From: Acidobacteriota bacterium
GTDB lineage: Bacteria > Acidobacteriota > UBA890 > WLXD01
Assembly (NCBI GenBank): GCA_965248695.1
Contig: CBDFKD010000002.1
Span: forward strand, 2,400,001-2,464,000
DNA length: 64,000 nt
Reading direction: 5' to 3'
In this document: piece after piece, positions 11,299 through 62,400 of the stretch
Layout of the letters: each line of letters starts with the position of its first letter
Position numbering within the stretch: position 1 is the stretch's first letter
Made by a program: the position numbers and the translations under genes
Notes under the pieces: model-generated
The model's database searches: none
Seen by the model: only the letters and a program-made list of their open reading frames with translations
Told to the model about the DNA's origin: nothing

Positions 11299-11326
11299 GG
11301 TTCTAGAGCGCGTGCTCAGGTTCGCA

Positions 11327-11377
11327 AGCGTGCTCTTGGTTCTAGTTGGCTCCAGTTGTTCCTCGTTGGGTCCCCGC
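11327..11377 (+). repeat. Eroded partial copy of the att-like repeat (distal TTGG block only)
   Basis: GCGTGCTCTTGGTTCTAGTTGGCTCCAGTTGTTCCTCGTTGGGTCCCCGC aligns without gaps to 52162-52211 (GCGCGCTCTTGGTTCTAGTTGGCCCCAGGTGGTGCTGGTCGGTTTCCCGC). Confidence 0.75.
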
Positions 11378-13753: not shown

Positions 13754-15199
13754 TTGGCTCCGGAACGACCGCCGGTATTGCTGCGCAAGCTCGGCGTCTT
13801 CGACTCCACCATGATGTTGATGGGAATCATCATCGGGTCGGGGATCTTCACCACCGCCGGGATCATGGCGCAGTATGTCCCGTCGGCGCCCCTTCTACTC
13901 GGTGTCTGGCTCCTGGGCGGCTTGATCACGCTCGCGGGAGCCTTCGCCTTCGCCGAGCTGGGCACGGCGATGCCGGAGGCCGGCGGCCACTACGTGTATC
14001 TGCGGGAGGCTTACGGAGCGCTGGCAGGCTTCCTCTTCGGCTGGATGGCGTTCTGGGTGTCGATGACCGGGTCGATCGCCGCGCTGGCCGTCGCGTTCGC
14101 CGAGTACTTCAGTTTCTTCTTTCCGTCCCTGGGCACCGACGTCGAATTGCTATCGGTTCCTGTGTCGATGGGGCCAGCGTCGTTCGTCTACAGTCTGTCG
14201 GCGGGTCAGATTGTCGCCGTCGTCGTTGTGCTGGTCTTGTCGGCGATCAACTGCATCGGCGTGGGACTCGGGGCCAGGATCGCGAACGCGCTCACCGTGG
14301 TGAAGATCGGCACGCTGCTGGCGCTTGCCGGCTGCGCTTTCACGGTAGGTAGCGGCCGCAGCGTCGACATGACGCTCAACCCGACCGGCATGAGCCTCTC
14401 CGAAATAGTCGTCGGCATCGGGCTGGCTATGATCGCCGCCTCCTGGGCATTCGACGGCTGGAACAACATCAACTACATCGCCGGCGAGATCAAGGACCCT
14501 GCCCGCGCCCTGCCGGTTGCCCTGGTTTTCGGCGTCTCGGCGGTCACGTTTCTGTACGTCGTCACCAACCTCGTCTACTTGTACGCGCTTCCCATCGGCG
14601 AAATGACAGGAGTGGTACGCATCGCCGAGGTCGCTGCCACCGCGTTGTTCGGCGGCCAGATGGCGACCGTGATCTCGCTGGCCGTCATGGTGTCGGTGTT
14701 CGGCGCGCTCCACGGCACGATTCTGGTGGGCCCGCGTATCTACTACGCGATGGCGCGTGACGGCCTCTTCTTCGAGGGTGTCGCGAGGGTACACGAGCGT
14801 TACCGGACCCCTATCGCCGCCATCTCGCTGCAGGCTGCATGGGCGACGCTGCTCACCCTGTCGGGCACTTTCGAACAGCTATTCACGTTCGTGATGTTCT
14901 CGCAGCTGATCTTCTGGGTGGCCACGGTCTGTTCGGTCTTCACGTTGCGTCGCAAGCGCCCAGAGTTGGCGCGTCCGTACAAGACGTTCGGCTATCCGTG
15001 GACACCCTCACTGTTCATCGTGTTGACGGTGGGGATCCTGCTGAACACGTTGTTGGAGCGGCCGGTCGAATCGATCGCCGGCCTGGCGCTGACGGCGATC
15101 GGCATTCCCGCCTACTACCACTGGAGGCGGGGCGAACCGAAGCCGCCAACGGAACCCGGCGGATCGTCGGAGACCCCGGCCGAGCGATCTGAAGCGTAG
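13754..15199 (+). CDS. APC-family amino acid permease
   Basis: IIGSGIF, AELGTAMPEAGGHYVYL, FDGWNN..YIAGEIKDP, RIYYAMARDG; about 12 TM segments. Confidence 0.92.
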   Translation: MAPERPPVLLRKLGVFDSTMMLMGIIIGSGIFTTAGIMAQYVPSAPLLLGVWLLGGLITLAGAFAFAELGTAMPEAGGHYVYLREAYGALAGFLFGWMAFWVSMTGSIAALAVAFAEYFSFFFPSLGTDVELLSVPVSMGPASFVYSLSAGQIVAVVVVLVLSAINCIGVGLGARIANALTVVKIGTLLALAGCAFTVGSGRSVDMTLNPTGMSLSEIVVGIGLAMIAASWAFDGWNNINYIAGEIKDPARALPVALVFGVSAVTFLYVVTNLVYLYALPIGEMTGVVRIAEVAATALFGGQMATVISLAVMVSVFGALHGTILVGPRIYYAMARDGLFFEGVARVHERYRTPIAAISLQAAWATLLTLSGTFEQLFTFVMFSQLIFWVATVCSVFTLRRKRPELARPYKTFGYPWTPSLFIVLTVGILLNTLLERPVESIAGLALTAIGIPAYYHWRRGEPKPPTEPGGSSETPAERSEA

Positions 15200-18032: not shown

Positions 18033-19775
18033 ATGGGGTTGCGCGGCATAGTTGCGTTGATCGCCTTGGCCCAGGCGGCCATGGGAGCGGATGGCTCGCC
18101 GGCGGACATGGTTTTTGTGAATGGCGCCGTTTACACGGTTGATGCGGCGCGAAGCCGGGCGTCCGCGATGGTGGTGACCGGTGATCGGATCACCTATGTC
18201 GGCGACGATGCCACTGCGCGCGATTTCGTCGGCCCGGCGACACGTGTCGTCGACCTCGAGCGGCGCATGCTGCTGCCAGGCTTCCAGGACTCCCACGTAC
18301 ACCCCGGAATGGTTCCCAATCCGGCCGACTACGTGAGGCTCGACGGCCTGATTCGGCGCCAGGACGTACTCGAGAGGATTCGGCAGTATGCCCAGGCGCG
18401 TCCCGACAAACCCTGGATAGAGGGCGGCGGCTGGGACGAGACGGCGTTTCTTCCTAGCGGCCTGCCCACCCGGGAGATGCTCGATAGCGTGGTCCCTGAC
18501 CGACCCGCGTATCTGGTCAACAACTCCGGCCACGGCGGTTGGGCCAATTCGCTGGCGCTGGCGGCAGCGGGCATCAACGCAGATACGCCCGACCCGCCCA
18601 ACGGACGAATCGAGCGCGACGCAGACGGTCAGCCGACGGGCGCCCTGCACGAGGAGTCGGCAATGGCGCTGGTCGACGCCGTCATTGCGCCGCTGACGCC
18701 CGACGCGCGCGTGCGGAATCTGTCGGCGGCACTGGACGAAATGAGTCGACTGGGCATCACGGCGCTCGAGGACGCCATGGCCACTCCCGAGATCGCGCGC
18801 GCCTACAAGACGCTGGACGCGCGCGGCAAGCTGCACCAGCGCACCAACCTGTGTCTGCCCCACAGCCCCGACGAAGACGATGACGCCCAGATCGAGTCGT
18901 TTCTGGCCCAGCGCGACGAGCTTGCAGGTCGCCGGTTACGGGCCGGCTGTGTGAAGCTCTTTCTCGACGGCGCCTACGGGTCTCACACGGTCGTCTTGCT
19001 CGAGCCGTACAGCGACGATCCAGACACGTACGGTAAGGGTGAGCTCTTCATCGAGCAGAGCCGACTCGACCGTCTTGTCACCCGCCTGGACGCCGAGGGT
19101 TTTCGGGTACACGCGCACGCTCAAGGCGACGGCGCCGTGCGTGCCGCACTCGACGCCTTTGCCGAGGCTCGTCGGCACAACGGCTTCCGCGACAACCGGC
19201 ACACCATCGCCCACCTGTGTCTGATCGACGCCGCCGACATCCAGCGTTTCAGGACCCTCGGTGTGATCGCCAACATGACCCCACTGTGGAGCCTTGGCGA
19301 CGCCTGGGAAACGGTGTTTGCGCCACGTCTATTCGGGCCGGAGCGCAGCCAGCGCATCTTCCAGACCCGGACGCTCCTGGGCTCGGGCGTGATTGTCGCC
19401 TGGGGTTCCGACTGGGATGTCACCGGGGTTTCACCCCTCGACGGCCTCGAGACCGCGACCACCCACCGCTATCCCGGCGGCATAGATCTCGCCGGCAACG
19501 AGGACAGCGCCTGGCTTCCTGAGGAGCGGGTCAGCCTGGAGCAAGCTATCGTCGCCTACACCAGCGCCGGGGCGTATCTCATGCACGCCGACAGCACGAG
19601 AGGATCGCTCTCGGCAGGCAAGCTGGCTGACTTCGTCGTTCTGGACAGCAACCTCTTCGAAAGAGCTCCCCTGGAGATCCACACCGTGCAGGTCGACATG
19701 ACGGTCGTCGGTGGACAGTTGGTGTACACGGCGCCTGTCCCGGCTTCACCAAGCGATGCTGGCCCTTCCCGCTGA
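18033..19775 (+). CDS. Amidohydrolase 3 (YtcJ-like), secreted
   Basis: PGFQDSHVH, KLFLDG, HAHAQGD, RHTIAH, GSDW and GKLADFVVL motifs. Confidence 0.88.
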   Translation: MGLRGIVALIALAQAAMGADGSPADMVFVNGAVYTVDAARSRASAMVVTGDRITYVGDDATARDFVGPATRVVDLERRMLLPGFQDSHVHPGMVPNPADYVRLDGLIRRQDVLERIRQYAQARPDKPWIEGGGWDETAFLPSGLPTREMLDSVVPDRPAYLVNNSGHGGWANSLALAAAGINADTPDPPNGRIERDADGQPTGALHEESAMALVDAVIAPLTPDARVRNLSAALDEMSRLGITALEDAMATPEIARAYKTLDARGKLHQRTNLCLPHSPDEDDDAQIESFLAQRDELAGRRLRAGCVKLFLDGAYGSHTVVLLEPYSDDPDTYGKGELFIEQSRLDRLVTRLDAEGFRVHAHAQGDGAVRAALDAFAEARRHNGFRDNRHTIAHLCLIDAADIQRFRTLGVIANMTPLWSLGDAWETVFAPRLFGPERSQRIFQTRTLLGSGVIVAWGSDWDVTGVSPLDGLETATTHRYPGGIDLAGNEDSAWLPEERVSLEQAIVAYTSAGAYLMHADSTRGSLSAGKLADFVVLDSNLFERAPLEIHTVQVDMTVVGGQLVYTAPVPASPSDAGPSR

Positions 19776-19844
19776 CCGAGGCACGGAGAAGCGTTTCTGC
19801 GCCTCTGAACCGACGATCGTGGCGATCGCGTGGCCTTCCTCACC

Positions 19845-35543: not shown

Positions 35544-36860
35544 ATGAGCAACGAGGAAAACACCGGCAAGAAGTCGACTCGGCGTGACCTGGCGCGCAGC
35601 GCCGTTGTCGGATACACCGCCGCCGCCATCGGTTTACCTAGGAACCTGCTTGCCAGGGCGATTCCAGACCCGGACCAGATGGGTGGCGCGGCATCAGGCG
35701 GCGAACGGTGGCGAAGAAACCGGACCCTCAACGCGGAGTACTACACGGACGAAGAGCGTTACCTGTTCGATGAGCGCTTGGTGGCCGATCATTTCTGGTT
35801 GATGGTCGATCACGAAAGTAGGATCCCCGACCCCGGCGACTACTTCGTCTTCGAATACGGTCGCAGCGAGAGCGTCATTATCCTGCGTGATGAGTCCGGC
35901 GCGGTGCGCGCTCACTACAACGTCTGCCGCCATCGTGGCTCGAGGCTGTGTCGCCACGACGGCGACGCCATCCCGGAAGATCCACGCCTGTCGGTTCGAC
36001 AGCTCGGGCAGACCGGCAACACGCCGGTCTTCCGATGCCCGTACCACGCCTGGACCTACGACCTGAGCGGCGAGCTCGTCTACGCCTATGGCATGCAGGA
36101 AGATTTCGACCCAGCCGACAACGGCCTGATCCCCTGCCATGTCCGCATGGCAGACGGCTTCATCTTCGTGAACCTGTCTCGGGAATCGGATCCGCCGGAG
36201 TTCGAGCCGGCGATCGAGCCCTTCCGCCGCAAGGTGGGCCAAAGACACGGCACCGCACAGTTGAAGGTCGGCGAACGGGTCAACGTTGCGATGCACGCCA
36301 ACTGGAAGCTAGCGCTCGAGAACTTCCTGGAGTGCTACCACTGCGGGCCGTCGCACGAGTACCTCTGCCAGGTGCACCCAGGCTCCGACCTCACGGTGCC
36401 GGGAAAGCGGGAATGGTGGGCTCAGGACTACGTCAGCGGCACGATGGACGGCAAGCCGGCGGCACCGCTACTGCCCAGTATCAAGCGCATCCGGGTCACG
36501 CAGAGCGAGACGGCGACGGGTTGGTCGAGCAGTTACTGGCTCGGCTACGACGACTACGTCTTCGCGGTTCGATTCACCCCCCGTGATGTCGACCTCACCG
36601 ACGTAGAATGTCTCTGGCTCGTGCACCCGGATGCGGAGCGCGGGGTCGATTACGACGCCGATAGGCTCAAGGAGCTGTGGCTCGTCACGCTCCTCGAAGA
36701 CATCTGGCTATGCGAGAACAACCACGCCGGAATCTGTTCCGGCGCCTACCGGTCCGGGCGCTACGCCACCCATGAGCTCGGCCGGGTCATGCCGGCGGGG
36801 TTCATCCGCTGGTACATGGCCGCCGTTGCGGGTGACATCGGGCCAGCGGCGCCCTACTGA
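35544..36860 (+). CDS. Rieske non-heme iron oxygenase alpha subunit (GbcA/CntA-like) with twin-arginine leader
   Basis: CRH...CPYH Rieske ligands; NWK..LENFLECYHC...H mononuclear Fe motif; ED near the C-terminus; STRRDL leader. Confidence 0.88.
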   Translation: MSNEENTGKKSTRRDLARSAVVGYTAAAIGLPRNLLARAIPDPDQMGGAASGGERWRRNRTLNAEYYTDEERYLFDERLVADHFWLMVDHESRIPDPGDYFVFEYGRSESVIILRDESGAVRAHYNVCRHRGSRLCRHDGDAIPEDPRLSVRQLGQTGNTPVFRCPYHAWTYDLSGELVYAYGMQEDFDPADNGLIPCHVRMADGFIFVNLSRESDPPEFEPAIEPFRRKVGQRHGTAQLKVGERVNVAMHANWKLALENFLECYHCGPSHEYLCQVHPGSDLTVPGKREWWAQDYVSGTMDGKPAAPLLPSIKRIRVTQSETATGWSSSYWLGYDDYVFAVRFTPRDVDLTDVECLWLVHPDAERGVDYDADRLKELWLVTLLEDIWLCENNHAGICSGAYRSGRYATHELGRVMPAGFIRWYMAAVAGDIGPAAPY

Positions 36861-36884
36861 CGATTGACGGCTCGATTTCCAACC

Positions 36885-36933
36885 CCGCTCTTGGTTCTGG
36901 TTGGCTGCGGTTGGTGCTAGGTGGTGTGCCGCG
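36885..36933 (+). repeat. Eroded partial copy of the att-like repeat (distal TTGG block only)
   Basis: CCGCTCTTGGTTCTGGTTGGCTGCGGTTGGTGCTAGGTGGTGTGCCGCG; same GCTCTTGG start and 10-bp TTGG phasing as the full copies. Confidence 0.7.
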
Positions 36934-36979
36934 CTCCGCGACCGCGTCATCGGGCCCACTCCGGTGGGAGCACCGCAAC

Positions 36980-37696
36980 ATGATCGCAAAACCGACTGTT
37001 GTTCGAAGCTGTCGAGCACTCGCGCTCGCGGCTATTGCCGTGTGGGCCCTGACGCGGCTCTCATTCGCACAACCGACGAATCAGGTGTTCGTGCTCAACG
37101 AAGGTTACGATCGAACCGTCGGTGCCGAACTCCTGGTTGAATCGACCGTTGCGCTAGTGGTGTCGGACGGAATCGTGCTGGTCACCGATCCAGGCATGGT
37201 CTCGGATCAAGCGAAGCTGGTGTCAGCGCTTGCCACACACGGGATCGATCCTGAAGACGTTAACCATGTGTTCATCACCCACCTGCATCCGGATCACACC
37301 GCGAACGTCGGCATGTTTCCAAACGCTAAACTAGTGGATGCGTTCTCTATCTACGATCGCGAACGATGGATCGAGCACGACGACGACTTCGTCCTTGCAC
37401 CCGGCATCCGCGTGCTCCGCACTCCGGGGCATACCTCATGGGACGCGTCCCTTCTGATCGAGAACACGATCAAGGGAACGATCGCGATTACCCATGCTTG
37501 GTGGCATAGCGACATGACGCCGAAGGTCGACCCGTTCGCCGACGATCAATCGGCCCTGGAGAGAAGTCGCGAACGACTACTTGGCGAAGCGGATTGGATC
37601 ATACCGGGGCATGGTGCTGCCTTCCGCAATCCGAACGCGCCCTCCGACAAGGGCCGTCTGCACCATCCCCCTCACGATCTCGGGGACCCGTTCTGA
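36980..37696 (+). CDS. Metallo-beta-lactamase fold hydrolase, secreted
   Basis: THLHPDH, TPGHT and IPGHG motifs; N-terminal signal peptide. Confidence 0.85.
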   Translation: MIAKPTVVRSCRALALAAIAVWALTRLSFAQPTNQVFVLNEGYDRTVGAELLVESTVALVVSDGIVLVTDPGMVSDQAKLVSALATHGIDPEDVNHVFITHLHPDHTANVGMFPNAKLVDAFSIYDRERWIEHDDDFVLAPGIRVLRTPGHTSWDASLLIENTIKGTIAITHAWWHSDMTPKVDPFADDQSALERSRERLLGEADWIIPGHGAAFRNPNAPSDKGRLHHPPHDLGDPF

Positions 37697-37700
37697 GTCG

Positions 37701-39197
37701 CTAGTCCGCGGCCTTGACGACCTCTCTCATGTACCAGGTGGCGAAGTCGTTGGGGCCGCCCTCGTGGGTGGAGTAGCGACTGGCGGCGTAGGCGCCTGAC
37801 TCGATGCCCACATGGTTGTTGTCGGTGATCCAGATGTCTTCCAGGAGCGTGATGTACCACAGCGCTTTGACGTTGTCCGGATCGTAGTCGCGACCCTCGA
37901 CAGCGTCGGGGTGCACTAGCCAGACAGTCTCGCAATCGATGAGCTTCTCTGTCCGCGGCGTGAACCGTGCTACCACGACGTGATCGTCGTAGGCTTGCCA
38001 GAAGCCGGTAAGCTGGCCTGTCGAGGCCTGCTCGGTCTCGTGGTTCCACCCGGTGATGTTGGGGAGGAGGATTGACGTCGGCTTGCCGTCGACCGACCCG
38101 GTGACGAAGCCGGGATTGAGCAACCCGCCCATGCTCGCGTACGTGGGAGTGTCACCCATACCAGCGGATTCGGACTGCCGCCCCGGCCGGGACTCCTCCG
38201 GGACCCACGCCGCGACCGCAGCATGCCTTTCGTTTTTCTGTTCGCGCGTGCCCTCCAGGTCCCAGTTGTGCGTGGCCACCAGATTCGTGTGCGCCGGGCC
38301 GCAGTGATAGCACTCCTTGAAGTTCTCGATAAACAGCTTCCAGTTGGCGTTGATCGGAACGTACTCGCGTGCCGCGATCTTCAGATCCGCGAGGCTCCAC
38401 TTGTCGCCTATGGCCCTCACCGAGCTCACCGCCGATTCGAAGTCCGGCGGCGTGTCCGACTTGGACAGGTTGACGAGGACCTGTCCTTCGACGACCCGCG
38501 TGTGGCAGGGAAGCAAGCCGTTCTCGGCCGGGTCGAAGTCGTCCTGCATGCCGTAGGCGTAGATCAGGCTGCCCTCGGTGTCATAGGTCCAGGCGTGGTA
38601 TGGGCAGCGGAATACCGGTGAGTTACCGGACTGTCCAAGCTGCTTGACCGACAGCCGTGGGTCGCTTGGTATCGCATCGGCGTCATGCCGGCATAGCCGC
38701 GAGCCGCGGTGGCGGCAGACATTGTAGAAGCCTCGAATCTCGTTGTCCTGCCCGCGCACGATCAGGATGCTTTCGGAGCGACCGAACTCGTACACGTAGA
38801 AGTCACCCGGGTTCGGAATGCGGCTCGCCTGGTCGGTGTACTGCCAGATGTTCTCCGCCAAGAACGCTTCGTCGGCGTCGAATATCTCCGGGTCGAGGTA
38901 GTACTCGCCGGGAAGGGTCAGGCCCTCTTTCCAGCCGTCCGCTCTGGCTCTCTGACGGACCGGCTCGGTCAAGGGAGCCCCACCCCCACCACCGTAGCGA
39001 CCGACCTCCTCTGGCATCTCGACACGAGCCACACGATAGGCCGTCTTCGGCGCGGCGGTCTTGGCTGGGGTCGAGCCGAGCAACGCGTTGGGCAGCGCGA
39101 CAGCCGCGGTACCGGCGGCGACCGAGGTCTTTGCAAAGGTCCGGCGGCTCAGCTTGGCATCCGCGCCGTTCGTCTCACCTGTATCTCGCCTGCTCAT
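37701..39197 (-). CDS. Rieske non-heme iron oxygenase alpha subunit with Tat signal (paralogue of 35544..36860)
   Basis: SRRTFAK Tat motif; CRH...CPYH; NWKLFIENFKECYHC...H; GGAGG RBS before ATG 39197. Confidence 0.88.
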   Translation of the reverse strand: MSRRDTGETNGADAKLSRRTFAKTSVAAGTAAVALPNALLGSTPAKTAAPKTAYRVARVEMPEEVGRYGGGGGAPLTEPVRQRARADGWKEGLTLPGEYYLDPEIFDADEAFLAENIWQYTDQASRIPNPGDFYVYEFGRSESILIVRGQDNEIRGFYNVCRHRGSRLCRHDADAIPSDPRLSVKQLGQSGNSPVFRCPYHAWTYDTEGSLIYAYGMQDDFDPAENGLLPCHTRVVEGQVLVNLSKSDTPPDFESAVSSVRAIGDKWSLADLKIAAREYVPINANWKLFIENFKECYHCGPAHTNLVATHNWDLEGTREQKNERHAAVAAWVPEESRPGRQSESAGMGDTPTYASMGGLLNPGFVTGSVDGKPTSILLPNITGWNHETEQASTGQLTGFWQAYDDHVVVARFTPRTEKLIDCETVWLVHPDAVEGRDYDPDNVKALWYITLLEDIWITDNNHVGIESGAYAASRYSTHEGGPNDFATWYMREVVKAAD

Positions 39198-39292
39198 GTC
39201 GTCCTCCAAGACCGAAGCTGCAGTTCCCTTCTGCGACAACTAGCGCATCACGACCCCGGCGGTATTTCAACTGTTGCGCCGTCAGCTGGCGA

Positions 39293-41969: not shown

Positions 41970-42455
41970 ATGAACGAGAACGTCGACTTTTCGCCGGCCG
42001 AAGCTTCCGACCGCCACAAACTACTAATGGGACTATCGATGTTGGCGCTCGCCTTGCTCTTCGCCACCGGCGCCGTCGAGCATGTCCTCGGACCGGACGC
42101 TGAGCTCTATGTGGACATTGTCAGCAAGGGGCTGACGATCTTCATCATCGTCCCGATTTCTTGGGTTGCCTACTGGAAGCTCTGGAAGCTTCCGAGCCAT
42201 CAGCGTGAGCAGTACTTCAGCGTCGACGGATTCGTTATGGACGCTTTGTATCGAGCCCAACGACTTTCGTGGACGGCAACGCTGGTGGTGCTCGCCGTGC
42301 TTGTCTCGATTTTTGATGGGCCGCTATTGAATGCCTACCCGACCGAGTTCTACCTGGACGCCGTGCTCGCCCTGATGCTCGGGGTTCTGAGCACGGTCTT
42401 CTTCTATCTGGTCGGGGTCGAGGACGACGACTCTGAGGACGCGTCGCATGCGTAG
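41970..42455 (+). CDS. Hypothetical membrane protein (about 4 TM)
   Basis: GGAGG RBS; four hydrophobic segments; overlaps the downstream XRE regulator. Confidence 0.7.
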   Translation: MNENVDFSPAEASDRHKLLMGLSMLALALLFATGAVEHVLGPDAELYVDIVSKGLTIFIIVPISWVAYWKLWKLPSHQREQYFSVDGFVMDALYRAQRLSWTATLVVLAVLVSIFDGPLLNAYPTEFYLDAVLALMLGVLSTVFFYLVGVEDDDSEDASHA

Positions 42456-42663
42456 AGCCACCCTGAACAACCGCATTCGGGTTTTCCGGGCCGAGCACCG
42501 ACTGAGTCAGAGCGAGCTGGCGCGCCTGATCGGCGTTTCCCGTAAGACGATCAGCACCATCGAGGTCGGGAGGTTCGTTCCTTCGACCGTCATCGCGTTA
42601 CTGATAGCGCGTCACTTCGACGTCCCCGTGGAAGAGATCTTCTCGCTCGAAGAAGCCCCCTGA
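42448..42663 (+). CDS. XRE/Cro-C1 helix-turn-helix transcriptional regulator
   Basis: NRIRVFRAEHRLSQSELARLIGVSRKTISTIEVGRFVPS...VEEIF. Confidence 0.92.
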   Translation: MRRATLNNRIRVFRAEHRLSQSELARLIGVSRKTISTIEVGRFVPSTVIALLIARHFDVPVEEIFSLEEAP

Positions 42664-42740: not shown

Positions 42741-44000
42741 TGACCTGACCCCGCGGTTAGTACCATGTCTTATCTCAGTAACTCGGTGCTGACAAGAGGT
42801 TGTTGAGGCCGGCGAAGCGGAGCGCAGCCGGCTTCAACAACGTCGCTTCGGGTGCGGGCGGCCGATAGCTCAGCGAGCTGTGCGGTCGCATGCGGTTGTA
42901 GTGCTGACGCCATCTCTCGATCAGAACCTTTGCCTCCTTGAGCGTGTAGAAGATCTCTCCATCCAGCAGCTCGTCGCGTAGCTTGCCGTTGAAGCTCTCC
43001 ACGTAACCGTTCTCCCACGGCGAGCCCGGCTCGATGAACAGCGTCCCCACGCCCAACCGGCCCAGCCAGTCGCGAACCGCCTCGGCGGTGAACTCTGGTC
43101 CGTTATCCGACCGGATGTGCTCAGGTATGCCCCGGTGTACGAACAACCTCCCGAGCTGCTCCAGCACGTCCTCAGAGTTGAGCTTCCGTGCTACATGGAT
43201 CGCCAGGCTTTCTCGTGTGTACTCATCGACGATCGTCAGCAGCCTCATAGCCCGACCGTCGTGCGTCCGGTGGTGCAGGAAGTCATACGCCCAGACATGA
43301 TCCCGGTGCTGTGGGCGCAGCCGGATGCAGGAGCCATCGCTCAGCCACAGCCGTGCTCGTTTGGGCTGTTTTCTCGGTACTTTCAGCCCTTCGCGCCGCC
43401 AGATACGCTGCACTCGTTTGTGGTTCACGGACCAGCCCTCCATGCGCAGCAACGCTGTCACCCTCCGATATCCGTAGCGCCCGTACTGTCGGGCTAAATC
43501 CACGATCCGCTCCGTCAAAATCTGCTCCTGTTGCGGCTCTCTTGGCACGTACCGGTGTGTCGTGCGTGGTTGTTTCAGTACCCGACACGCCCGCCTCTCC
43601 GAGACGCCCAGCCGCCCCCGTACATGTGCCACCGCCTCTCGCCGCCGAGCTGGGCTCAGAAGTTTCCCTCCGCCACTTCCTTCAGGATCGACAGGTCGAG
43701 TTCCTTTTCCGCCACCAGCCTCTTGAGCCGGGCATTCTCCTTCTCCAGTTGCTTGAGCTTTCTGGCCTGGTTGAGCTTCAGTCCGCCGTACTCTCGCCGC
43801 CACCGGTAGTAGGTGTGCTCGGTGATTGCTAGCTTGCGGCAGGCATCCTTGACCGTCGCCCCTCGAGCCAGCTCCACCTCAGCCTCCCGGAGCTTGCGTA
43901 CGATCTGCTCGGCGCTGTGCCTCTTACTCGGCATTCTGACCTCCCGTTCTTGACCCAGATCGTGAGATTACATCCGGATCCGTTTTCGGGGGTCAGGTCA
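42741..44000 (-). mobile_element. IS3-family insertion sequence (IS407-like), 1260 bp, copy 1
   Basis: Terminal IRs TGACCTGACCCC; orfA 43656..43934 and DDE orfB ending at 42775. No target duplication (flanks GCAC / CTGC). Confidence 0.95.
42775..43934 (-). CDS. IS3 transposase OrfAB (programmed -1 frameshift)
   Basis: OrfA HTH plus leucine zipper; OrfB WAYDF, RSDNGPEF, SPWENGYVESF; GGGAAAC slippery site at the junction. Confidence 0.92.
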
Positions 44001-44003
44001 CTG

Positions 44004-44115
44004 CGAAGATCCACGGGGCGCGGAACCACTCGCTAGAGGTCAGTCCACATATCGGAGATGCCCGATCTGGGAGAGCGGCGAGCTTCGACGAGCGATGTTC
44101 CCTTTCGGCTATCCG
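44004..44115. repeat. About 112-bp dispersed repeat, copy 1 (copy 2 at 61935..62046)
   Basis: Ungapped hand alignment gives 25 mismatches in 112 nt; shared blocks TCCACGGGGCGC, GTCAGTCCACA and GAGAGCGGCGAGCTT. Confidence 0.85.
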
Positions 44116-46023: not shown

Positions 46024-47283
46024 TGACCTGACCCCCGAAAACGGATCCGGATGTAATCTCACGATCTGGGTCAAGAACGGGAGGTCAGAATGCCGAGTAA
46101 GAGGCACAGCGCCGAGCAGATCGTACGCAAGCTCCGGGAGGCTGAGGTGGAGCTGGCTCGAGGGGCGACGGTCAAGGATGCCTGCCGCAAGCTAGCAATC
46201 ACCGAGCACACCTACTACCGGTGGCGGCGAGAGTACGGCGGACTGAAGCTCAACCAGGCCAGAAAGCTCAAGCAACTGGAGAAGGAGAATGCCCGGCTCA
46301 AGAGGCTGGTGGCGGAAAAGGAACTCGACCTGTCGATCCTGAAGGAAGTGGCGGAGGGAAACTTCTGAGCCCAGCTCGGCGGCGAGAGGCGGTGGCACAT
46401 GTACGGGGGCGGCTGGGCGTCTCGGAGAGGCGGGCGTGTCGGGTACTGAAACAACCACGCACGACACACCGGTACGTGCCAAGAGAGCCGCAACAGGAGC
46501 AGATTTTGACGGAGCGGATCGTGGATTTAGCCCGACAGTACGGGCGCTACGGATATCGGAGGGTGACAGCGTTGCTGCGCATGGAGGGCTGGTCCGTGAA
46601 CCACAAACGAGTGCAGCGTATCTGGCGGCGCGAAGGGCTGAAAGTACCGAGAAAACAGCCCAAACGAGCACGGCTGTGGCTGAGCGATGGCTCCTGCATC
46701 CGGCTGCGCCCACAGCACCGGGATCATGTCTGGGCGTATGACTTCCTGCACCACCGGACGCACGACGGTCGGGCTATGAGGCTGCTGACGATCGTCGATG
46801 AGTACACACGAGAAAGCCTGGCGATCCATGTAGCACGGAAGCTCAACTCTGAGGACGTGCTGGAGCAGCTCGGGAGGTTGTTCGTACACCGGGGCATACC
46901 TGAGCACATCCGGTCGGATAACGGACCAGAGTTCACCGCCGAGGCGGTTCGCGACTGGCTGGGCCGGTTGGGCGTGGGGACGCTGTTCATCGAGCCGGGC
47001 TCGCCGTGGGAGAACGGTTACGTGGAGAGCTTCAACGGCAAGCTACGCGACGAGCTGCTGGATGGAGAGATCTTCTACACGCTCAAGGAGGCAAAGGTTC
47101 TGATCGAGAGATGGCGTCAGCACTACAACCGCATGCGACCGCACAGCTCGCTGAGCTATCGGCCGCCCGCACCCGAAGCGACGTTGTTGAAGCCGGCTGC
47201 GCTCCGCTTCGCCGGCCTCAACAACCTCTTGTCAGCACCGAGTTACTGAGATAAGACATGGTACTAACCGCGGGGTCAGGTCA
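46024..47283 (+). mobile_element. IS3-family insertion sequence, 1260 bp, copy 2
   Basis: Same IRs and same translated ORFs as copy 1; 4-bp target duplication TGAT (46020-46023 and 47284-47287). Confidence 0.96.
46090..47249 (+). CDS. IS3 transposase OrfAB (programmed -1 frameshift)
   Basis: orfA 46090..46368; GGGAAAC heptamer at 46356-46362; orfB DDE domain ending at 47249. Confidence 0.92.
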
Positions 47284-50508: not shown

Positions 50509-50637
50509 TGAGTGCCGCTTAGCTTGAAGCGAGCACAATCGTGGGCGCAGGCGACACGACCAACACAGCCAGGCCTCTGTTAGATTGGTTGCTGCACCCG
50601 CCAGATTGCATCCACATACCAGTTGAAAGGAGTCAGC

Positions 50638-51437: not shown

Positions 51438-51716
51438 ATGATCCGCTCTTTCAAGTGCAAGGATACCGGAGCGCTATTCGGTGATGTCGCGGTTCGACGG
51501 TTCCGGCCCTTCGAGAAAGTGGCTCGGCGGAAGCTATTGTTGCTGCATCAAGCGCGTCGACTGGACGATCTTCGGGTACCGCCTGGTAATCGGCTCGAGG
51601 CTATGAAGGGGACGCGCAGGGGGCAACACAGCATCCGGATAAACAGTCAATGGCGTGTCTGCTTCCGTTGGACGAGAGGCAACGCACTCGATGTAGAAAT
51701 TGTTGACTACCACTGA
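51438..51716 (+). CDS. higB: HigB (RelE-like) toxin
   Basis: MIRSFKCKDT, ARRKL, LRVPPGNRLE, HSIRINSQWRVCFRW and EIVDYH motifs. Confidence 0.93.
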   Translation: MIRSFKCKDTGALFGDVAVRRFRPFEKVARRKLLLLHQARRLDDLRVPPGNRLEAMKGTRRGQHSIRINSQWRVCFRWTRGNALDVEIVDYH

Positions 51717-51723
51717 GCGAATC

Positions 51724-52029
51724 ATGAACAGACAGCCGAAAAACCTCGAGCCCATTCATCCCGGCGAGATTCTGATGGAGGAGTTCATGAAGCCGTTGAA
51801 CATCAGTATCAACCGGCTTGCGCGCGAGCTCTGCGTGCCTCCCGGTAGAATCAGCGCGATCGTCAACGGCAAGCGTTCGATAACTGCCGACACGGCTCTG
51901 CGACTAGGCAGGTTCCTCGGGGTTTCGCCGGAGATTTGGACGGGGTTGCAGTCCGACTACGAGCTGCGGATCGCGCGGCGCACCGTCGGCACTGAGATCG
52001 AGGAACGCGTACGCACGCACGTAGCTTAG
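51724..52029 (+). CDS. higA: HigA antitoxin (HTH)
   Basis: PIHPGEILMEEF, RISAIVNGKRSITADTALRL and W..LQ..YEL motifs. Confidence 0.93.
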   Translation: MNRQPKNLEPIHPGEILMEEFMKPLNISINRLARELCVPPGRISAIVNGKRSITADTALRLGRFLGVSPEIWTGLQSDYELRIARRTVGTEIEERVRTHVA

Positions 52030-52043
52030 CAATCGAGTCAGGT

Positions 52044-52085
52044 GCGCCCGTAGCTCAGCTGGATAGAGCAGCGGACTTCTAATCC
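52044..52085 (+). tRNA. tRNA-Arg(TCT) 5' half only (non-functional fragment, att core), copy A
   Basis: GCGCCCG TA GCTC AGCTGGATA GAGC A GCGGA CTTCTAA TCC gives the acceptor 5' strand, D arm and anticodon arm. No T arm or 3' acceptor strand follows. Confidence 0.9.
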
Positions 52086-52230
52086 AAACGCGCGCAGTTG
52101 GTTCGCGTTGGCGCTCGTTGTTTCTTCTTTGCTGCCGCTGGGTTGCGTTGGCAACGGATCAGCGCGCTCTTGGTTCTAGTTGGCCCCAGGTGGTGCTGGT
52201 CGGTTTCCCGCGGGCACAATCTCGGGCACA
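52044..52230 (+). repeat. att-like unit A: tRNA half + 10-bp-phased TTGG array + GGGCACA pair
   Basis: Colinear and ungapped with units B and C; GGGCACA at 52212 and 52224. Confidence 0.9.
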
Positions 52231-52320
52231 GTTCAGAACGGTCAAACGGCATCGCCACTGGTGCTCGTCGGCATCACTACTCGTTCGCAGCAACTAGAAA
52301 CTGGTTCAGGAGGACTTGCA

Positions 52321-56448: not shown

Positions 56449-56661
56449 CCGAAGACGGACGTGCGGCGGCGGCCTGGTCTCGGCTTCGAGGAGTCCTGAT
56501 CGCCCTCGCTCCGCCAGGCAAAGGCGGTCCCGCAGCGAATCCCTTGAGGAGCCCAACGATCAGTGGTTGCATCCACGCGTCCCTCTACTGACCAAGCCAA
56601 GAAAGTGACTCGACAAGGGTCATGCCGGAATCCCGGGAGGTAGACAGTGGTTGGAGGATCG

Positions 56662-58460
56662 ATGACTGAATCCAGGCCGCGGCTGTTGATCGCTTTGCTG
56701 GCGAGCCTGAGCATATCGGCTTGTCAGCCGTCAACGCAGGACGCGTCGCCAGGCGATGCTGGCAGCCCAGCCGATTTGGTGCTGCAGGGCGGCAAGTTCT
56801 TTACCGTCGACGAAGCCCAGGTTTGGGCTGAAGCCGTCGCGGTCAAGGACGGCAGGTTCGTCTACGTCGGCAACGACGTTGGTGCAGAGAGCTTCGTCGG
56901 TCCCGATACCGATCGCCATGACCTCGGCGGCAAGCTGACGATTCCCGGCCTGGTGGATTCCCATACGCACCCAGGTCTGATGGGGCGGGAGACGGCCGGG
57001 TACACCGCAGTCCCCGTGGGTGGTGGTCCCAGAGGAAGGCTGCCCGGGGGTGGGACCAAGGAGGAGATCTTCGCTGCGGTGGAGGCCTATGCCGAAGCCA
57101 ACCCGGACCTTGCCTGGATCGAGATGGGTAGCTGGTCCGGGGATCTGTACGGCGTCGCGGGCCCACACAAGAGAGATCTGGATCGCGTCGTACCCGATCG
57201 ACCGGTGATGTTAGGAAGCGTCCATAGCCTTTGGGTCAATTCCGTGGCGCTCGAGATGATGGGGGTCGACAGCAACACACCCGATCCGGTACCCGGTCTC
57301 TCATACTTCGTACGGGATGCGGATGGGGAGCCTACCGGCTGGATCAAGGAATGGGCCGCCTGGCCCTATGTGCAGCACCTTACTGACGTTGACCGGGAGG
57401 CCAACAAGGAGGGTATCGACACCTTCTTGGAGTACCTGTCAGGCCACGGCGTTACTACACTCTTGGACGCTGGCAACAACAGCTACCACGATCTCACGTA
57501 CTCGCTGCTTGCCGAGCTAGAGGCAGCCGGTCGCCTGCCGGTTCGCTACGAGGGCAGCGATCACATCTTCTTGCCCGATCAGGTGCCCGGTGCGATCGAT
57601 GAGCTACAGCGGCTGCACCGCACTTACGGCAGCGAGCGTCTGACGTTCAACACGATCAAGATTCACTTCGACGGCACGGACGAGATTCGTACCGGCGCGG
57701 TGCTCGAGCCGTTCAGCGATGACCCGGGCAACCGAGGCGCTACGCTCCTCGACACCGAGGAGTTGAGTGATTTCATCGTGCAGCTTCACGAAGCCCGGAT
57801 CGATTTACACCTGCACATCGTGGCCGACCGGGGCGTTCGCATCGCGCTGGATGCCGTAGAAGCGGCGCGGGGATCGGTCGACGGCGAGCTCTATCCGCGC
57901 GTTACGATCTGCCACCTCGACATCATCGATACGGTCGACTACCCGCGTTTCAAACAGCTGGGTGTCATTGCCAACTACACACCCCAATGGCACGGCCTGG
58001 GAGACAGACCGCCGTTACCCTTGGCGATCGCTTCGAGAGGATGTTGCTGGTGCAGCCGTTACTGGATGACGGTGCGTTGGTCACCTTCTCCAGCGACGTA
58101 ACATCGCTCGGGGGCATGGAGCGGGCCAACCCATATCTGGGAATGCAGATCGGCCACAACCGCCAATACCACGAACAGGGCGAGGCCGCGCCGATAAGGC
58201 TGCCGCTGAGCGAACGGCTGAACCTGGAGGATCTGATCAAGGGATACACCTTGAACGGCGCCTACCAGCTCCGTATGGAGGACCAGCTCGGCTCGATCGA
58301 GGTGGGCAAGCTCGCCGATCTGGTGGTGTTGGATCGCAACCTGTTCGAAATCGATCGCTACGAGATCCACGAGGTTCGACCCGAGGCGGTCATCATGGAA
58401 GGCGAGATCATCAGGGGGAGCTTGGACGGCAGCGCGGGCGCCCGTAGCTCAGCTGGATAG
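56662..58460 (+). pseudogene. Amidohydrolase 3 (YtcJ-like) lipoprotein, frameshifted near 58000
   Basis: PGLVDSHTH, KIHFDG and RVTICH in one frame; FSSD, YTLNGA and GSIEVGKLADLVVL in another (57987..58460). The stop codon lies inside the tRNA fragment. Confidence 0.8.
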
Positions 58461-58476
58461 AGCAGCGGACTTCTAA
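58438..58476 (+). tRNA. tRNA-Arg(TCT) 5' half only (non-functional fragment, att core), copy B
   Basis: 39 nt identical to 52044-52082, ending at the CTTCTAA anticodon loop. Confidence 0.9.
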
Positions 58477-58624
58477 ACCAAACGGTCGCAGTTGGTTCTG
58501 GTTGGCGCTGCTTGGTTCTTCTTTGCTGGCGTTGGTTTGCGTTGGTGCCCGATCACGCCGCTCTTGGCTAGCGTTGGTTCCCGTTGGTGCTGGCTGGTTT
58601 CCCGCGGGCACGATCGTGGGCAGA
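58438..58624 (+). repeat. att-like unit B
   Basis: tRNA half, phased TTGG array, GGGCACG at 58606 and GGGCAGA at 58618. Confidence 0.9.
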
Positions 58625-58769
58625 GTTTGGAACACCCCGATCACGGCTCCGACGATAGACTGTCTGAATACTGCCGCGGTAGGCTGTCACCTGCTGCGCG
58701 AGATGGGCGCTCCCTGGTCCCGCCGAGAGGCAGCGGCGGCGCACGGAGCGCTACGGGTCGGGACGGAGC

Positions 58770-59594
58770 ATGCGAACAGCGGAGGTCGAAGCCACCGGCT
58801 GGCGCGATCGCCTGCACGAGATCATCTTCGAGGCCGAGACACCGGCCGGTAAGAACTTCGACGTCGCGCTGTTGGTTCTGATCGTGCTCAGCGTGGTGAA
58901 CGTCTCTCTGGAGAGCGTCGCCGAGATCCGTGCCGAGCACGGGCTGCTGCTCCGACGCGTGGACTGGGCGATCACCATCCTGTTCACGATCGAGTACGTT
59001 CTCCGGCTGCTGTGCGTCCGCCGGCCCTTGCGCTACGCGCGGTCGTTCTACGGCGTGGTCGACCTGATGGCGGTGCTGCCTGTCTACCTGAGCCTGGTGA
59101 TCTCGGGGTCCCAGTCGCTGGTGGTGGTCCGGACCCTGCGCCTTCTGCGCGTCTTCCGTGTGCTCAAGCTGGCGCACTTCATCGGCGAGGAGCGCGCGCT
59201 GCGGGCGGCACTGCGAGCCAGCTCGCGCAAGATCGTAGTGTTCCTCGGTGCCGTGCTGACGGTGGTGCTGATCGTGGGTGCGGTGATGTACCTCATCGAG
59301 GGGCCGCAGAACGGTTTCAACAGCATCCCGGAATCGGTTTACTGGGCGATCGTCACGATGACGACCGTCGGCTACGGCGACCTTGCCCCCCAGACCGTGG
59401 CCGGCAAGCTCCTGGCGTCGGCGATCATGATCCTCGGGTACGGCATCATCGCCGTGCCCACCGGTATCGTCACGGTGGAGGTGGCCAGCACGCTACGAAC
59501 CTCGACGCGCACGATCGCCTGTCGCGAGTGCGCGATGGAGGGGCACGCCAGCGACGCGGTGTACTGCAAGTTTTGCGGTACGCGTCTCGAGTAG
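58770..59594 (+). CDS. Voltage-gated potassium channel-like ion transporter
   Basis: RTLRLLRVFRVLK S4 helix; TMTTVGYGD selectivity filter; C-terminal CxxC...CxxC. Confidence 0.92.
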   Translation: MRTAEVEATGWRDRLHEIIFEAETPAGKNFDVALLVLIVLSVVNVSLESVAEIRAEHGLLLRRVDWAITILFTIEYVLRLLCVRRPLRYARSFYGVVDLMAVLPVYLSLVISGSQSLVVVRTLRLLRVFRVLKLAHFIGEERALRAALRASSRKIVVFLGAVLTVVLIVGAVMYLIEGPQNGFNSIPESVYWAIVTMTTVGYGDLAPQTVAGKLLASAIMILGYGIIAVPTGIVTVEVASTLRTSTRTIACRECAMEGHASDAVYCKFCGTRLE

Positions 59595-59666
59595 CTGCGA
59601 CAGGATCGACGCGCGTCGCGCTGCACGAAGCCACCGATGTTCACGCTTCAGAGCTCGTGAAGAACC

Positions 59667-61889
59667 CTATTCGTCTATCCCGAAGGCCAATAGCACATTC
59701 CCCGGGCTATTACCGAAAATCGCGTACCCGGATCCCATGTACATCATCCCATCGACGATCGTTGGGGAGGTGGCACCAATCGCGCCGCCGAATGCCGGCA
59801 CTTCGTTAATGGCTTCGTAGGTTCGTTTCGTGGCGTATTCCCAGAGAATCCCGCCGTCCGCCTTTGAATATGCACGGAGTGTCCCTTGGGAAGAGCCGGT
59901 GATTACCGCACCGGGCACTGCGGTTGCCGCCGCCGTGTAACCCGAGGAGCAGGCGTTGAAACCCTCCAGGTCGCAGTCCTCCAGCCCCGGCAGCTCCGTG
60001 TACCAGACGCGCTCCCCCGTCGTCACCCGCAATGCCGCGACGGCTCCGGTCGCGTCCCGGTAGGTCAGCGGACGATAGAAGAGCTCGCCGTCGGACGCCC
60101 CGCCCCAACCCGCCGCGTTGGGAGCAAGCCGGTCGCCGGCCTGGGCTACCCAGAGGACTGCCCCGTTGTTGTCGGGATCCAAAGCGGTGATGCGGCCGCT
60201 CTCCTGTACGCCCAGCAGAACGCGGCGACCGTTCGGTAGGTCGAGCAGAATCGCCTGGTTGACGTCGTCGCCCGGGCCCTGAATGTAGCCAGGACAATTG
60301 ATCACACGCTCGGGACCGTGGCCGCAGCCACCTGAGTCTCGATCCGAGGCCGCAGGAAAGAGGTTGGTCATCCACAACCGTCGGCCGCTATCCATGTCGA
60401 GGGCCAGCATCGAGTTGCAGGCGCCGCCGTCGAAGGTCACGTTGCCGACACCGAAGTGCTCAGTGATGCCGCAGTTCCCGGTGGGCGCATAGATCGCGCG
60501 CCGTTTCTCGTCGATCGCGAGCGAGCTCCAGATGCCGGCGCCGGACGGTCCGAACAGCGGCGTGCCGGCCGAGTTGTTCTTGTCGAGTGGACGAGGCCGC
60601 TCTGGAAGTGCATACGTTTGCCAGACCTTCTCACCGTTCTTCACGTCGACCGCCACGACGTTGCCCTGGAACGTGCAACACTCGTACTCGAGATGGGTAC
60701 CTGGCTGTTCTTCCCACGACGCGACGGGCACATACAGGCGCTCGCCTGAGGAGTCGAGTCTCACGGCGGATGTGATCTTCGCCTGTGGGTGATCATCGGG
60801 GCGCATGGTCCACATCCCCTCGCCCGTCTCGGCGTTCACTCCGTACACGACCCCGCTCATGTCGCCAAAATACGCGCCATGGCGGACCCCCGGAACTCCA
60901 TCGACCGGGCCGATCTTGACCGCGCCCCGGACCGCCGTCTGCGCGCGGTACGACCAGTGAACGCAGCCGGTCTTGGCGTCGAGCGCATAGACGAAGAAGT
61001 TGTCGCTCGTAATGAACAGCGCACCGCCCACCACGCTGGGTTGCGACCAGTTGGCCACCGAGGCATCCGGGATCGCGAAAACCCACTTCAGCTTCAGGCG
61101 CGGGAGGTCCGCGGCGGTGATGCCGCCGACCGCCTCCGACGCGAACCGATGCACAGCGAGCTCGGGATCCCAACCGTTCCAACTGGGTTGGTCGTCCCAG
61201 TTGTCGAGGTTCAGGGGCCTGTCACACTGGTTCGGCATGGCCGACGCCTCGCGGTGGGCAACGCCGCCGAACGGCTTGCCGGTCACGAGCTCGATGGTGG
61301 CGCGCTTGTACTCCTCGTCGTCGAAGATCCGGAAGCGATCGCTCTCGTCATGTGCCGCGATCGGGCGGTGCAACACTGCCAGGAGCTCGTCGGGTTCCAT
61401 TTGCTGGATATCGAACCGTGACGGCATGCTGGCGGGAACGGTCCCTCCCGAAACGGGTCGACCGTCAGGCGAATTGTCGTGGCAGACCGCACACCCGTTT
61501 TCGAAGACACCGACCATCCTTGCCGGATAAACGGTGCGGTCGGCCGCGCTACCGAGAGGCTTGCCGGTCACGAGCTCTGCCATCGCCCGCAGCTCGTCGT
61601 CCGTGAACTCGGACGTGAACTCCACCATGGGCCCTTCCATCAGGGCGATGAGGACCTGCTCCGGTTCCATCTGTCGAAGCGCCGCCCGAGTGGGTGCCAG
61701 GATCTCGTCGCTCTGACTGTCATGACACTCGGCACAGACCGCTTCATACGTCGACACCATGCTGGCGGCGGTGGCCCTCGGTTCCGGCACATCTTGTGCC
61801 TGGACCGGCGCAGTAAGGAGCTGCGTCGTCAATGCGACTACAGCTGCAAACACCGTCACCGAGCTCATCATCAGGGCTCGTCTGAGCAT
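59667..61889 (-). CDS. Quinohemoprotein dehydrogenase (PVA dehydrogenase-like) with two c-type heme motifs
   Basis: CAECH and CAVCH; LKLKWVF; DAKTGCVHW; ECCTFQG; GPSGAGIW; C-terminal GNVLLAF. Confidence 0.85.
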   Translation of the reverse strand: MLRRALMMSSVTVFAAVVALTTQLLTAPVQAQDVPEPRATAASMVSTYEAVCAECHDSQSDEILAPTRAALRQMEPEQVLIALMEGPMVEFTSEFTDDELRAMAELVTGKPLGSAADRTVYPARMVGVFENGCAVCHDNSPDGRPVSGGTVPASMPSRFDIQQMEPDELLAVLHRPIAAHDESDRFRIFDDEEYKRATIELVTGKPFGGVAHREASAMPNQCDRPLNLDNWDDQPSWNGWDPELAVHRFASEAVGGITAADLPRLKLKWVFAIPDASVANWSQPSVVGGALFITSDNFFVYALDAKTGCVHWSYRAQTAVRGAVKIGPVDGVPGVRHGAYFGDMSGVVYGVNAETGEGMWTMRPDDHPQAKITSAVRLDSSGERLYVPVASWEEQPGTHLEYECCTFQGNVVAVDVKNGEKVWQTYALPERPRPLDKNNSAGTPLFGPSGAGIWSSLAIDEKRRAIYAPTGNCGITEHFGVGNVTFDGGACNSMLALDMDSGRRLWMTNLFPAASDRDSGGCGHGPERVINCPGYIQGPGDDVNQAILLDLPNGRRVLLGVQESGRITALDPDNNGAVLWVAQAGDRLAPNAAGWGGASDGELFYRPLTYRDATGAVAALRVTTGERVWYTELPGLEDCDLEGFNACSSGYTAAATAVPGAVITGSSQGTLRAYSKADGGILWEYATKRTYEAINEVPAFGGAIGATSPTIVDGMMYMGSGYAIFGNSPGNVLLAFGIDE

Positions 61890-61934
61890 CGGATTCCTCC
61901 AGTTCGAGAGCCTGAAGCCTATCGCCAGAGCGTT

Positions 61935-62046
61935 CGAGGGTCCACGGGGCGCAAGACCACCCGCTATCCGTCAGTCCACACATCGAAGATGCTCCCTACG
62001 AGAGAGCGGCGAGCTTAGCCGAGGGATGTGTGCTTCCGGCCATCCG
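61935..62046. repeat. About 112-bp dispersed repeat, copy 2
   Basis: Direct repeat of 44004..44115; lies about 95 bp left of the upstream arm of att-like unit C. Confidence 0.85.
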
Positions 62047-62139
62047 GGGCGCGGGGAACCGATCCTGCGCCTGTGAACTGACGAATAGTGGCTATCGCAA
62101 TCCGCATTTCTGGAGATGCGCCGACTCTTGCTAAACTGC

Positions 62140-62400
62140 GGGCACAGTTTGGGCACAATCGGCCTCACAAGAAAACACCGTGCAGCTCCTAAGTGCCCAT
62201 GAATAAAGGGGCGCCCGTAGCTCAGCTGGATAGAGCAGCGGACTTCTAAACCAACCGCGCGCAGTTGGTTCCAGTTGGCGCTGCTTGGCGCTCGTTGGCT
62301 GGCGTTGGTTTGGGTTGGTGCCGAATCAGCTCGGCTTTGGTTCTAATTGGTTCCAGTTGGTGCTGCTTGGTTCCCCGCGGGCACAATCGTGGGCACAATC
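62140..62400 (+). repeat. att-like unit C, the most complete (attP-like, arm repeats on both sides)
   Basis: GGGCACA at 62140 and 62151; tRNA half 62211-62249; TTGG at 62265, 62275, 62285, 62295, 62305, 62315 and 62337, 62347, 62357, 62367; GGGCACA at 62379 and 62391. Confidence 0.9.
62211..62249 (+). tRNA. tRNA-Arg(TCT) 5' half only (non-functional fragment, att core), copy C
   Basis: 39 nt identical to copies A and B. Confidence 0.9.

Follow-up and report, generated by a model that had tools for sequence, protein, structure and literature searches.

The window analyzed here, a 64,000-nucleotide stretch of Acidobacteriota DNA, carries near its right end a half tRNA-Arg gene that stands between two pairs of GGGCACA repeats and is followed by a long array of phased TTGG motifs (junction F in Table 1). 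What kind of site is this, and how did it come to lie inside a chromosome? An earlier note described it as a complete attP. The lambda-type character of the site is borne out by the data below; F is, however, integrated in the chromosome, and the best reading is that it joins two tandem elements as a chimera rather than being an attP on its own. We conclude that F is most probably an internal attachment junction in an island accreted in tandem at tRNA-Arg(UCU).

Junction F spans about 270 bp, with arms on both sides of the core. As in lambda-type att sites, the repeated arm motif (two pairs and one inverted site) occurs on both sides of a core shared with a tRNA gene, and the identity ends at a known crossover subsite: the 39-bp tRNA 5' half ends at the anticodon loop in all seven junctions identified in the window and in related genomes. 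The TTGG motifs are direct repeats one helical turn apart, conserved relative to their spacers, as in the arrays bound by recombination directionality factors (RDFs) of the Xis, Cox, and Apl types. From first to last these units cover 102 bp, that is, ten turns at 10.2 bp, a length that suits wrapped DNA; one extra TTGG lies off the lattice at +99 from the tRNA start. The tRNA half matches the Rfam tRNA model with E 0.21, below the gathering score, and its blastn matches are annotated tRNA-Arg genes. The positions that the earlier note gave for the GGGCACA pairs, the tRNA half, and the 6+4 TTGG motifs were all reproduced by sequence inspection and motif search, as were the A/T-richer spacer (49% A+T at 62158-62210 versus 36% in the window) and the first downstream GGGCAC at +168 from the tRNA start in three of three window copies. 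Its "three full copies" are full for the tRNA half and the downstream arm, but not for the upstream arm, which is absent in D and E. The inverted GGGCACT and the extended -10-like box were missed in that first reading.

Table 1. Features of junction F and of its copies and relics in the window
Feature	Coordinates	Strand	Remarks
Junction F, whole site	62129..62397	+	box, left arm, inverted site, tRNA half, TTGG array, right arm
Extended -10-like box TGCTAAACT (TG-C-TAAACT)	62129..62137	+	candidate element-supplied promoter
Left (P) arm pair, GGGCACA x2, 11 bp apart	62140..62157 (starts 62140, 62151)	+	putative integrase arm-type sites
Inverted arm-like GGGCACT	62192..62198	-	putative fifth arm site; conserved in L046
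tRNA-Arg(UCU) 5' half, ending with anticodon loop (anticodon TCT 62245-62247)	62211..62249	+	probable crossover region
Block 1 of phased array, six TTGG spaced by 10 bp	62265..62318 (starts 62265-62315)	+	putative directionality-factor sites
Spacer of 22-bp step, conserved ATC	62319..62336	+	no IHF consensus match
Block 2 of phased array, four TTGG spaced by 10 bp	62337..62370 (starts 62337-62367)	+	motif search
Right (P') arm pair, GGGCACA x2, 12 bp apart	62379..62397 (starts 62379, 62391)	+	motif search
Cargo segment between E and F, integrase-less	58627..62128		ion-channel gene; PQQ/cytochrome c beta-propeller gene (Pfam)
Junction E, tRNA half and right arm, fused to last codons of amidohydrolase gene	58438..58626	+	left arm deleted
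Junction D, tRNA half and right arm, 14 bp past stop of higBA-like pair	52044..52232	+	left arm absent
Relic C, degenerate arm pair only	50531..50549	+	motif search
Relic B, array block 2	36878..36934	+	profile match E 2.6e-5
Relic A, array block 2	11325..11377	+	profile match E 4.7e-6

The -10-like box TGCTAAACT is the sole TGCTAnACT on the + strand of the window. It is retained in the related loci L046 and L028, and the homology of L046 to F begins at the box; the same box precedes a tRNA half in locus L044. A two-hexamer promoter scan called no promoter. Since an element that replaces the 5' half cuts the tRNA gene off from its own promoter, the box is plausibly a replacement promoter for the rebuilt gene.

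The array is far longer than chance would give. The longest run of TTGG on a 10-bp lattice in the window is six, while 200 order-3 Markov simulations of the window gave longest runs of one (54 times), two (145 times), and three (once). Single GGGCACA motifs are not enriched (eight observed versus 9.85 expected), and all five tandem pairs in the window, with at most one mismatch per site, fall on the + strand within copies or relics of the F-type element.

Accretion is supported by three same-strand tRNA halves, each ending at the anticodon loop and each followed by the same arm. D and E align to F without gaps; F alone has the upstream GGGCACA pair, none being found at 52044 (D) or 58438 (E). 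All junctions and relics of the window lie on the + strand and become more intact rightward, from the relics to D, E, and F, with five, eight, and ten of the ten TTGG units exact, respectively. From the tRNA half of E to that of F the distance is 3,773 bp. Several tRNA fragments of the same orientation, with arms and with integrase-less segments between them, are what tandem accretion of cis-mobilizable elements (CIMEs) leaves, and the segments between the junctions resemble such elements. ARAGORN reported no whole tRNA in the 64-kb window, which ends 1.6 kb past F, and an intact tRNA is absent also from the related loci L028, L045, and L046.

Several other features of the window deserve mention. 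The higBA-like toxin-antitoxin pair at 51438-52029 ends 14 bp before D and may stabilize the island. The amidohydrolase gene fused to E (56647-58460) is interrupted by a 10-bp deletion when compared with L028 and is either a pseudogene or the result of a sequencing error. An intergenic module, 76-84% alike among copies, occurs in the window at 61906-62140, 44004-44115, and 19765-19829 and in L028 at 1791-1913 and 14264-14315; the module has no protein match, and its copy at 61906-62140 lies immediately before the left arm of F. An NHL-repeat gene is flanked by two inverted insertion sequences, each of 1,260 bp and identical to the other, with an rve transposase (42741-44000 and 46024-47283); we take them to be IS3-like, and the whole is a recent composite transposon. 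Two convergent paralogous Rieske oxygenase genes are found at 35544-39239, with relic B between the first of them and a metallo-beta-lactamase-fold gene.

Relatives were collected in one scan of species-representative genomes for a tRNA-Arg half followed by two exact TTGG at variable spacing. It yielded 54 loci, many of them chance or native-tRNA matches; the requirement for two exact TTGG means that more divergent members of the family are missed, as are the elements' right ends. In this representative-genome scan, the exact family was confined to three genomes including that of the window: the other two, also Acidobacteriota, contribute four junctions in loci L028, L029, L045, and L046, L029 being a duplicate of L046. 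The full right arm, with the same offsets as F, is present in L045 and at one L046 site; at the second L046 site 82 bp between repeats are gone, and the L028 junction ends after two array units. Thus five of the seven tRNA-half junctions are full-length, and all five have the right arm pair at +168/+180 from the tRNA start.

Comparison of the five full copies separates motifs from spacers. The tRNA half is identical at all 39 positions (and in six of the seven junctions), whereas the right arms are 77-89% identical. In the right arms, nine of 54 columns vary within the TTGG and arm motifs, compared with 48 of the 94 other columns (P=4e-5, or 3.4e-4 when F, the copy that defined the motifs, is left out), although the copies are related and the column counts not independent, so that these P values overstate independence. 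The motif positions thus vary less than the spacer bases, the outcome that the earlier note had named as a check on its proposal of geometric selection. For the positions of TTGG the proposal is supported; selection against indels is no more than possible. The five right arms show no small indel over at least 62 substitutions; from a control of eight non-coding stretches with four gaps per 97 substitutions (a ninth, not verified as non-coding, was excluded), 2.6 would be expected (P about 0.08), and the absence is only suggestive. Outside this count stand the 82-bp collapse, the one truncated copy, and a 2-bp indel in the left arm: between F and L046 the left arm pair is unchanged, with eight substitutions and this indel around it.

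Divergence at four-fold sites gives a second measure. Between F and the full L046 site, where four-fold sites diverge by 0.137, the tRNA halves are the same at all 39 positions (P=0.003), and three arm sites are unchanged (P about 0.045); the halves of E and L028, with a four-fold divergence of 0.132, differ at one of 39 positions (P=0.028). The first base of the tRNA is retained in all seven junctions. On the simplest reading, each half belonged to a working tRNA until a later insertion, and deletions could then reach only as far as its first base.

Hybrid junctions are seen directly in the relatives. In L045 the same right arm is joined to a different left arm, which consists of a TTGGCAAG pair and an IHF-like box with one mismatch. 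The amidohydrolase gene has its native end in L045, whereas in the window (E) and in L028 it runs straight into the tRNA half at its first base, which shows that E lost its left arm by deletion. Gene blocks that are 89-98% identical are ordered differently around the junctions in the three genomes. As a separate observation, GGT precedes the tRNA start at 52041-52050 in the window, at 9981-9990 in L045, and at 8600-8609 in L046; read on the other strand it is a tRNA 3' end, and an IHF-like box flanks it in L045 and L046. The cause may be an element of the 3'-end type that entered the 5' acceptor strand in inverted orientation, or else the flipped arm of a second family.

Whole elements of the 5'-fragment type, with an intact tRNA-Arg 1.8-7.9 kb downstream, were found at five of the 54 loci (L002, L005, L021, L030, L042). 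A PF00589 integrase ends 46 bp before the tRNA in L005 and 3 bp before it in L030; L042 has an integrase fragment, and L002 and L021 have no integrase. In L005, L030, and L042 an arm pair precedes the tRNA and the motif recurs about 140-145 bp after the left tRNA start. L005 and L030, whose arm motifs differ from GGGCACA, are analogous in layout; this layout in whole integrase-bearing elements agrees with the proposal of the earlier note that GGGCACA marks arm-type sites. Similarly, in its free form phage MT375520 has the integrase, 62 bp, and then a tRNA-Arg 5' half. Across 20 representative loci of other types, TT dinucleotides set 10 bp apart are in excess (35 pairs; z 4.6 among 33 lags examined) with the two pattern-forced TTGG left out, and L041 resembles F, with TTGG units at +136/+146 and paired arm motifs at +168/+179. 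The phasing of arm-to-core distances in 12 families, with arms picked by eye, was not significant (Rayleigh p 0.07-0.37).

Some of these loci deserve description on their own. The 7.9-kb 5'-fragment element of L005 (2216-9909), from a Pirellulales genome, has matches to an integrase, a terminase small subunit, and a family A DNA polymerase and appears satellite-like. L021, L030, and L042 are Solirubrobacterales elements of 1.8, 4.7, and 2.2 kb, respectively, at tRNA-Arg(CCT), with common GGGCAGC arms; they form a decay series from a whole integrase (L030) through a fragment (L042) to none, with MNT/HEPN-like cargo (L021). Twelve loci from Alphaproteobacteria (L007, L011, L013, L017, L023, L024, L026, L033, L039, L043, L048, L051) share a tRNA-Arg(CCG) 5' half, a TTGG pair, a GCGTAAGCA pair, and a whole tRNA-Arg about 179 bp on, which in L033 is cut by the contig end; eleven are 84-100% alike without gaps, and L024 has a one-base insertion. 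An IHF-like box and more arm copies follow in four of the five that were read further (not in L043) and in the plasmid locus L058. A reading of these matches as a 179-bp mini-element was dropped, since most continue with more arm copies past the whole tRNA; they look like a widespread element with its own whole tRNA, as described for tRNA-dependent lysogeny (PMC10865867). The window junctions are not of this type, since no full tRNA follows D, E, or F. The plasmid locus L057 is a non-tRNA site that has only the anticodon stem-loop in common.

The earlier note also called for identification of a cognate integrase and a small HTH/Xis gene, and here the outcome was negative. Pfam found no tyrosine integrase or excisionase among 50 window ORFs and no integrase or excisionase for the F family among 113 proteins (110 from the fetched loci and three window frames), and our own integrase profile, run in six frames, had no match in the window, L028, L045, or L046. 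The adjacent cognate integrase of a lambda-type att site was thus found in none of the four. PHROGs on 125 intergenic frames gave one match, a repressor-type HTH at 42391-42660, and no excisionase. The region 61891-62199 was considered as a decayed integrase tail and rejected, as none of 265 candidates matched at E<=10, which is weak evidence. No site within two mismatches of the IHF consensus WATCAANNNNTTR occurs at F, while left arms of the other type, in L046 and L045, do have exact or one-mismatch IHF sites. F can be said to work like a lambda-type att junction; with the integrase missing, its assignment to a named family lacks footing.

We propose the following history. In 5'-fragment elements, crossover in the anticodon loop would be made by a tyrosine integrase that occupies the GGGCACA arms, and the element would supply a new 5' half, probably with a promoter, rebuilding the tRNA at the right end. 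A later element entering the rebuilt tRNA would join the left arm and 5' half of the older element to the right arm of the newer one, and the resulting hybrid would resemble a complete attP; F presumably arose in this way. The older junctions (E, D, and relics C, B, and A) would be pushed to the left and decay as the island grows upstream of tRNA-Arg, the intact copy of which is predicted beyond position 64000. The TTGG lattice, by analogy with known RDF sites, may bind a directionality factor that polymerizes head-to-tail and bends or wraps the right arm; the role of GGGCACA as integrase sites is likewise assigned by analogy.

An extension of this scheme, and not an exclusive alternative to it, is that the junctions are maintained sites of an active integrase-less cassette array, in which an integrase and a directionality factor from elsewhere move cargo such as the 3.8-kb segment between E and F. 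We consider this a tentative possibility. The differing order of cargo around the junctions in the three genomes, the unchanged tRNA half and arm sites of F and L046, and the higBA-like pair abutting D all fit it, but the tRNA-half conservation is equally explained if the halves were in a working tRNA until recent insertion. Moreover, the left arm is missing from D and E, a collapse has shortened one L046 copy, the L028 copy is truncated, the amidohydrolase gene at E carries a 10-bp deletion, and no integrase was found. In its stronger form, which we regard as unlikely, the array would be integron-like and anchored at the tRNA: a trans-acting integrase would move armed cassettes with their own promoters at tRNA-Arg, assisted by a ten-site filament on the right arm, and a cassette would be locked in place once its left arm had been deleted as far as the start of the working tRNA. 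The window differs from known integrons in having no tyrosine recombinase, and the junctions are long and arm-bearing, with no significant fold. It is very unlikely that F is an independent attP belonging to a plasmid or episome, or one that has not recombined and is merely a passenger: the arms on both sides of the core and the size conform to the 220-450 bp of the known attP sites treated in PMC4111918, but F is surrounded by metabolic genes, shares its strand with five further copies or relics, and has no integrase beside it, the same right arm has other left contexts in the relatives, and blastn matches of F in plasmid and phage records cover nothing beyond the tRNA half.

A transcribed structured RNA (the tRNA half with a GU-rich tail), or a tRNA-derived short repeat element, could account for the retention of the tRNA from its first base in all seven junctions, for the promoter-like box upstream of F, and for the terminator-like hairpins called inside the array (three versus 0.4 expected). 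The region folds no better than its shuffles, however (z -1.14, 28 of 200 as good), Rfam has no family at the gathering score, and conservation follows the 10-bp lattice. Among five sequences, a sample of low power, two of 66 pairs showed two-sided change, 134 of 500 shuffles scored as high, and the covariation term was unfavorable. Covarying pairs, which the earlier note had named as evidence against its DNA-site reading, are thus absent, a DNA rather than RNA role for F is supported, and the RNA reading seems highly improbable. Hardly credible at all is neutral expansion of a tandem repeat or an assembly artifact, even though the units are 10-mers and one copy is collapsed between repeats: it is contradicted by the motif-versus-spacer contrast, the TTGG and arm positions being kept in arms just 77-89% alike, and the element recurs in two independent genomes. 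We therefore retain the chimeric junction as the preferred reading of F.

If this reading is correct, it shows the probable way in which a large metabolic island of the poorly studied Acidobacteriota was assembled, at the 5' side of a tRNA gene, which is the less common one, and in a form that evades resolution by finders requiring an integrase. The arms provide a sequence handle for the cognate integrase and directionality factor and possibly an integration tool for Acidobacteriota, and F is a natural substrate for probing the maximal length of an RDF filament. Should the segments move in trans, they would form a cassette system parallel to integrons.

No description of an F-type element was found in the open-licence literature, and its parts have close counterparts. 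CIMEs, tandem accretion, and chimeric attI sites are treated in PMC5704250; the Streptococcus example given there lies at the 3' end of tRNA-Lys, whereas in the window it is the 5' half that is replaced, growth of the island is in the upstream direction, the host is an acidobacterium, and there are at least three junctions plus relics. Islander (PMC4383910) counts 5' fragments in 159 of 3919 islands and four tandems of three or more, and shares with F the 5' tRNA fragment upstream of the gene and the anticodon-centered crossover; by its description it requires an integrase per island, and integrase-less segments such as that between E and F are not resolved. In the account of pelagiphages in 10.1101/410191, attP sites replace tRNA 5' ends, and HTVC120P rebuilds tRNA-Arg from the phage 5' half; these phages and MT375520 share the order of integrase and tRNA 5' half, but are phage genomes with the integrase in cis, and the one attP of MT375520 inspected by eye has no comparable TTGG array. 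Prochlorococcus tycheposons, for which tRNA-Arg(TCT) is a target, are similar by description (10.1101/2020.12.28.424599), as successive integrations push older elements inward and leave partial tRNAs, while the island of F is without the hallmark integrase or replication gene. Loss of att sites is described as grounding prophages (PMC6379469).

The arms and the array likewise have known parallels. Paired arm sites flank the core, directly or with an inverted extra site, in mycobacteriophages L5, Giles, CrimD, and Pixie as presented in PMC3203893; these differ from F in motif and host, and F is an internal junction. Direct repeats one turn apart between core and arm sites are common to lambda Xis, Pukovnik Xis, 186 Apl, P2 Cox, and RdfS. 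According to PMC7498355 and PMC11963761, lambda uses three Xis monomers; the former reports five Apl sites at att and seven at promoters, and the latter RdfS filaments. Against these three, five, and seven sites, F has ten in two blocks. The underlying mechanism is thus already known, and the ten phased repeats and the integrase-less segments are its variant features.
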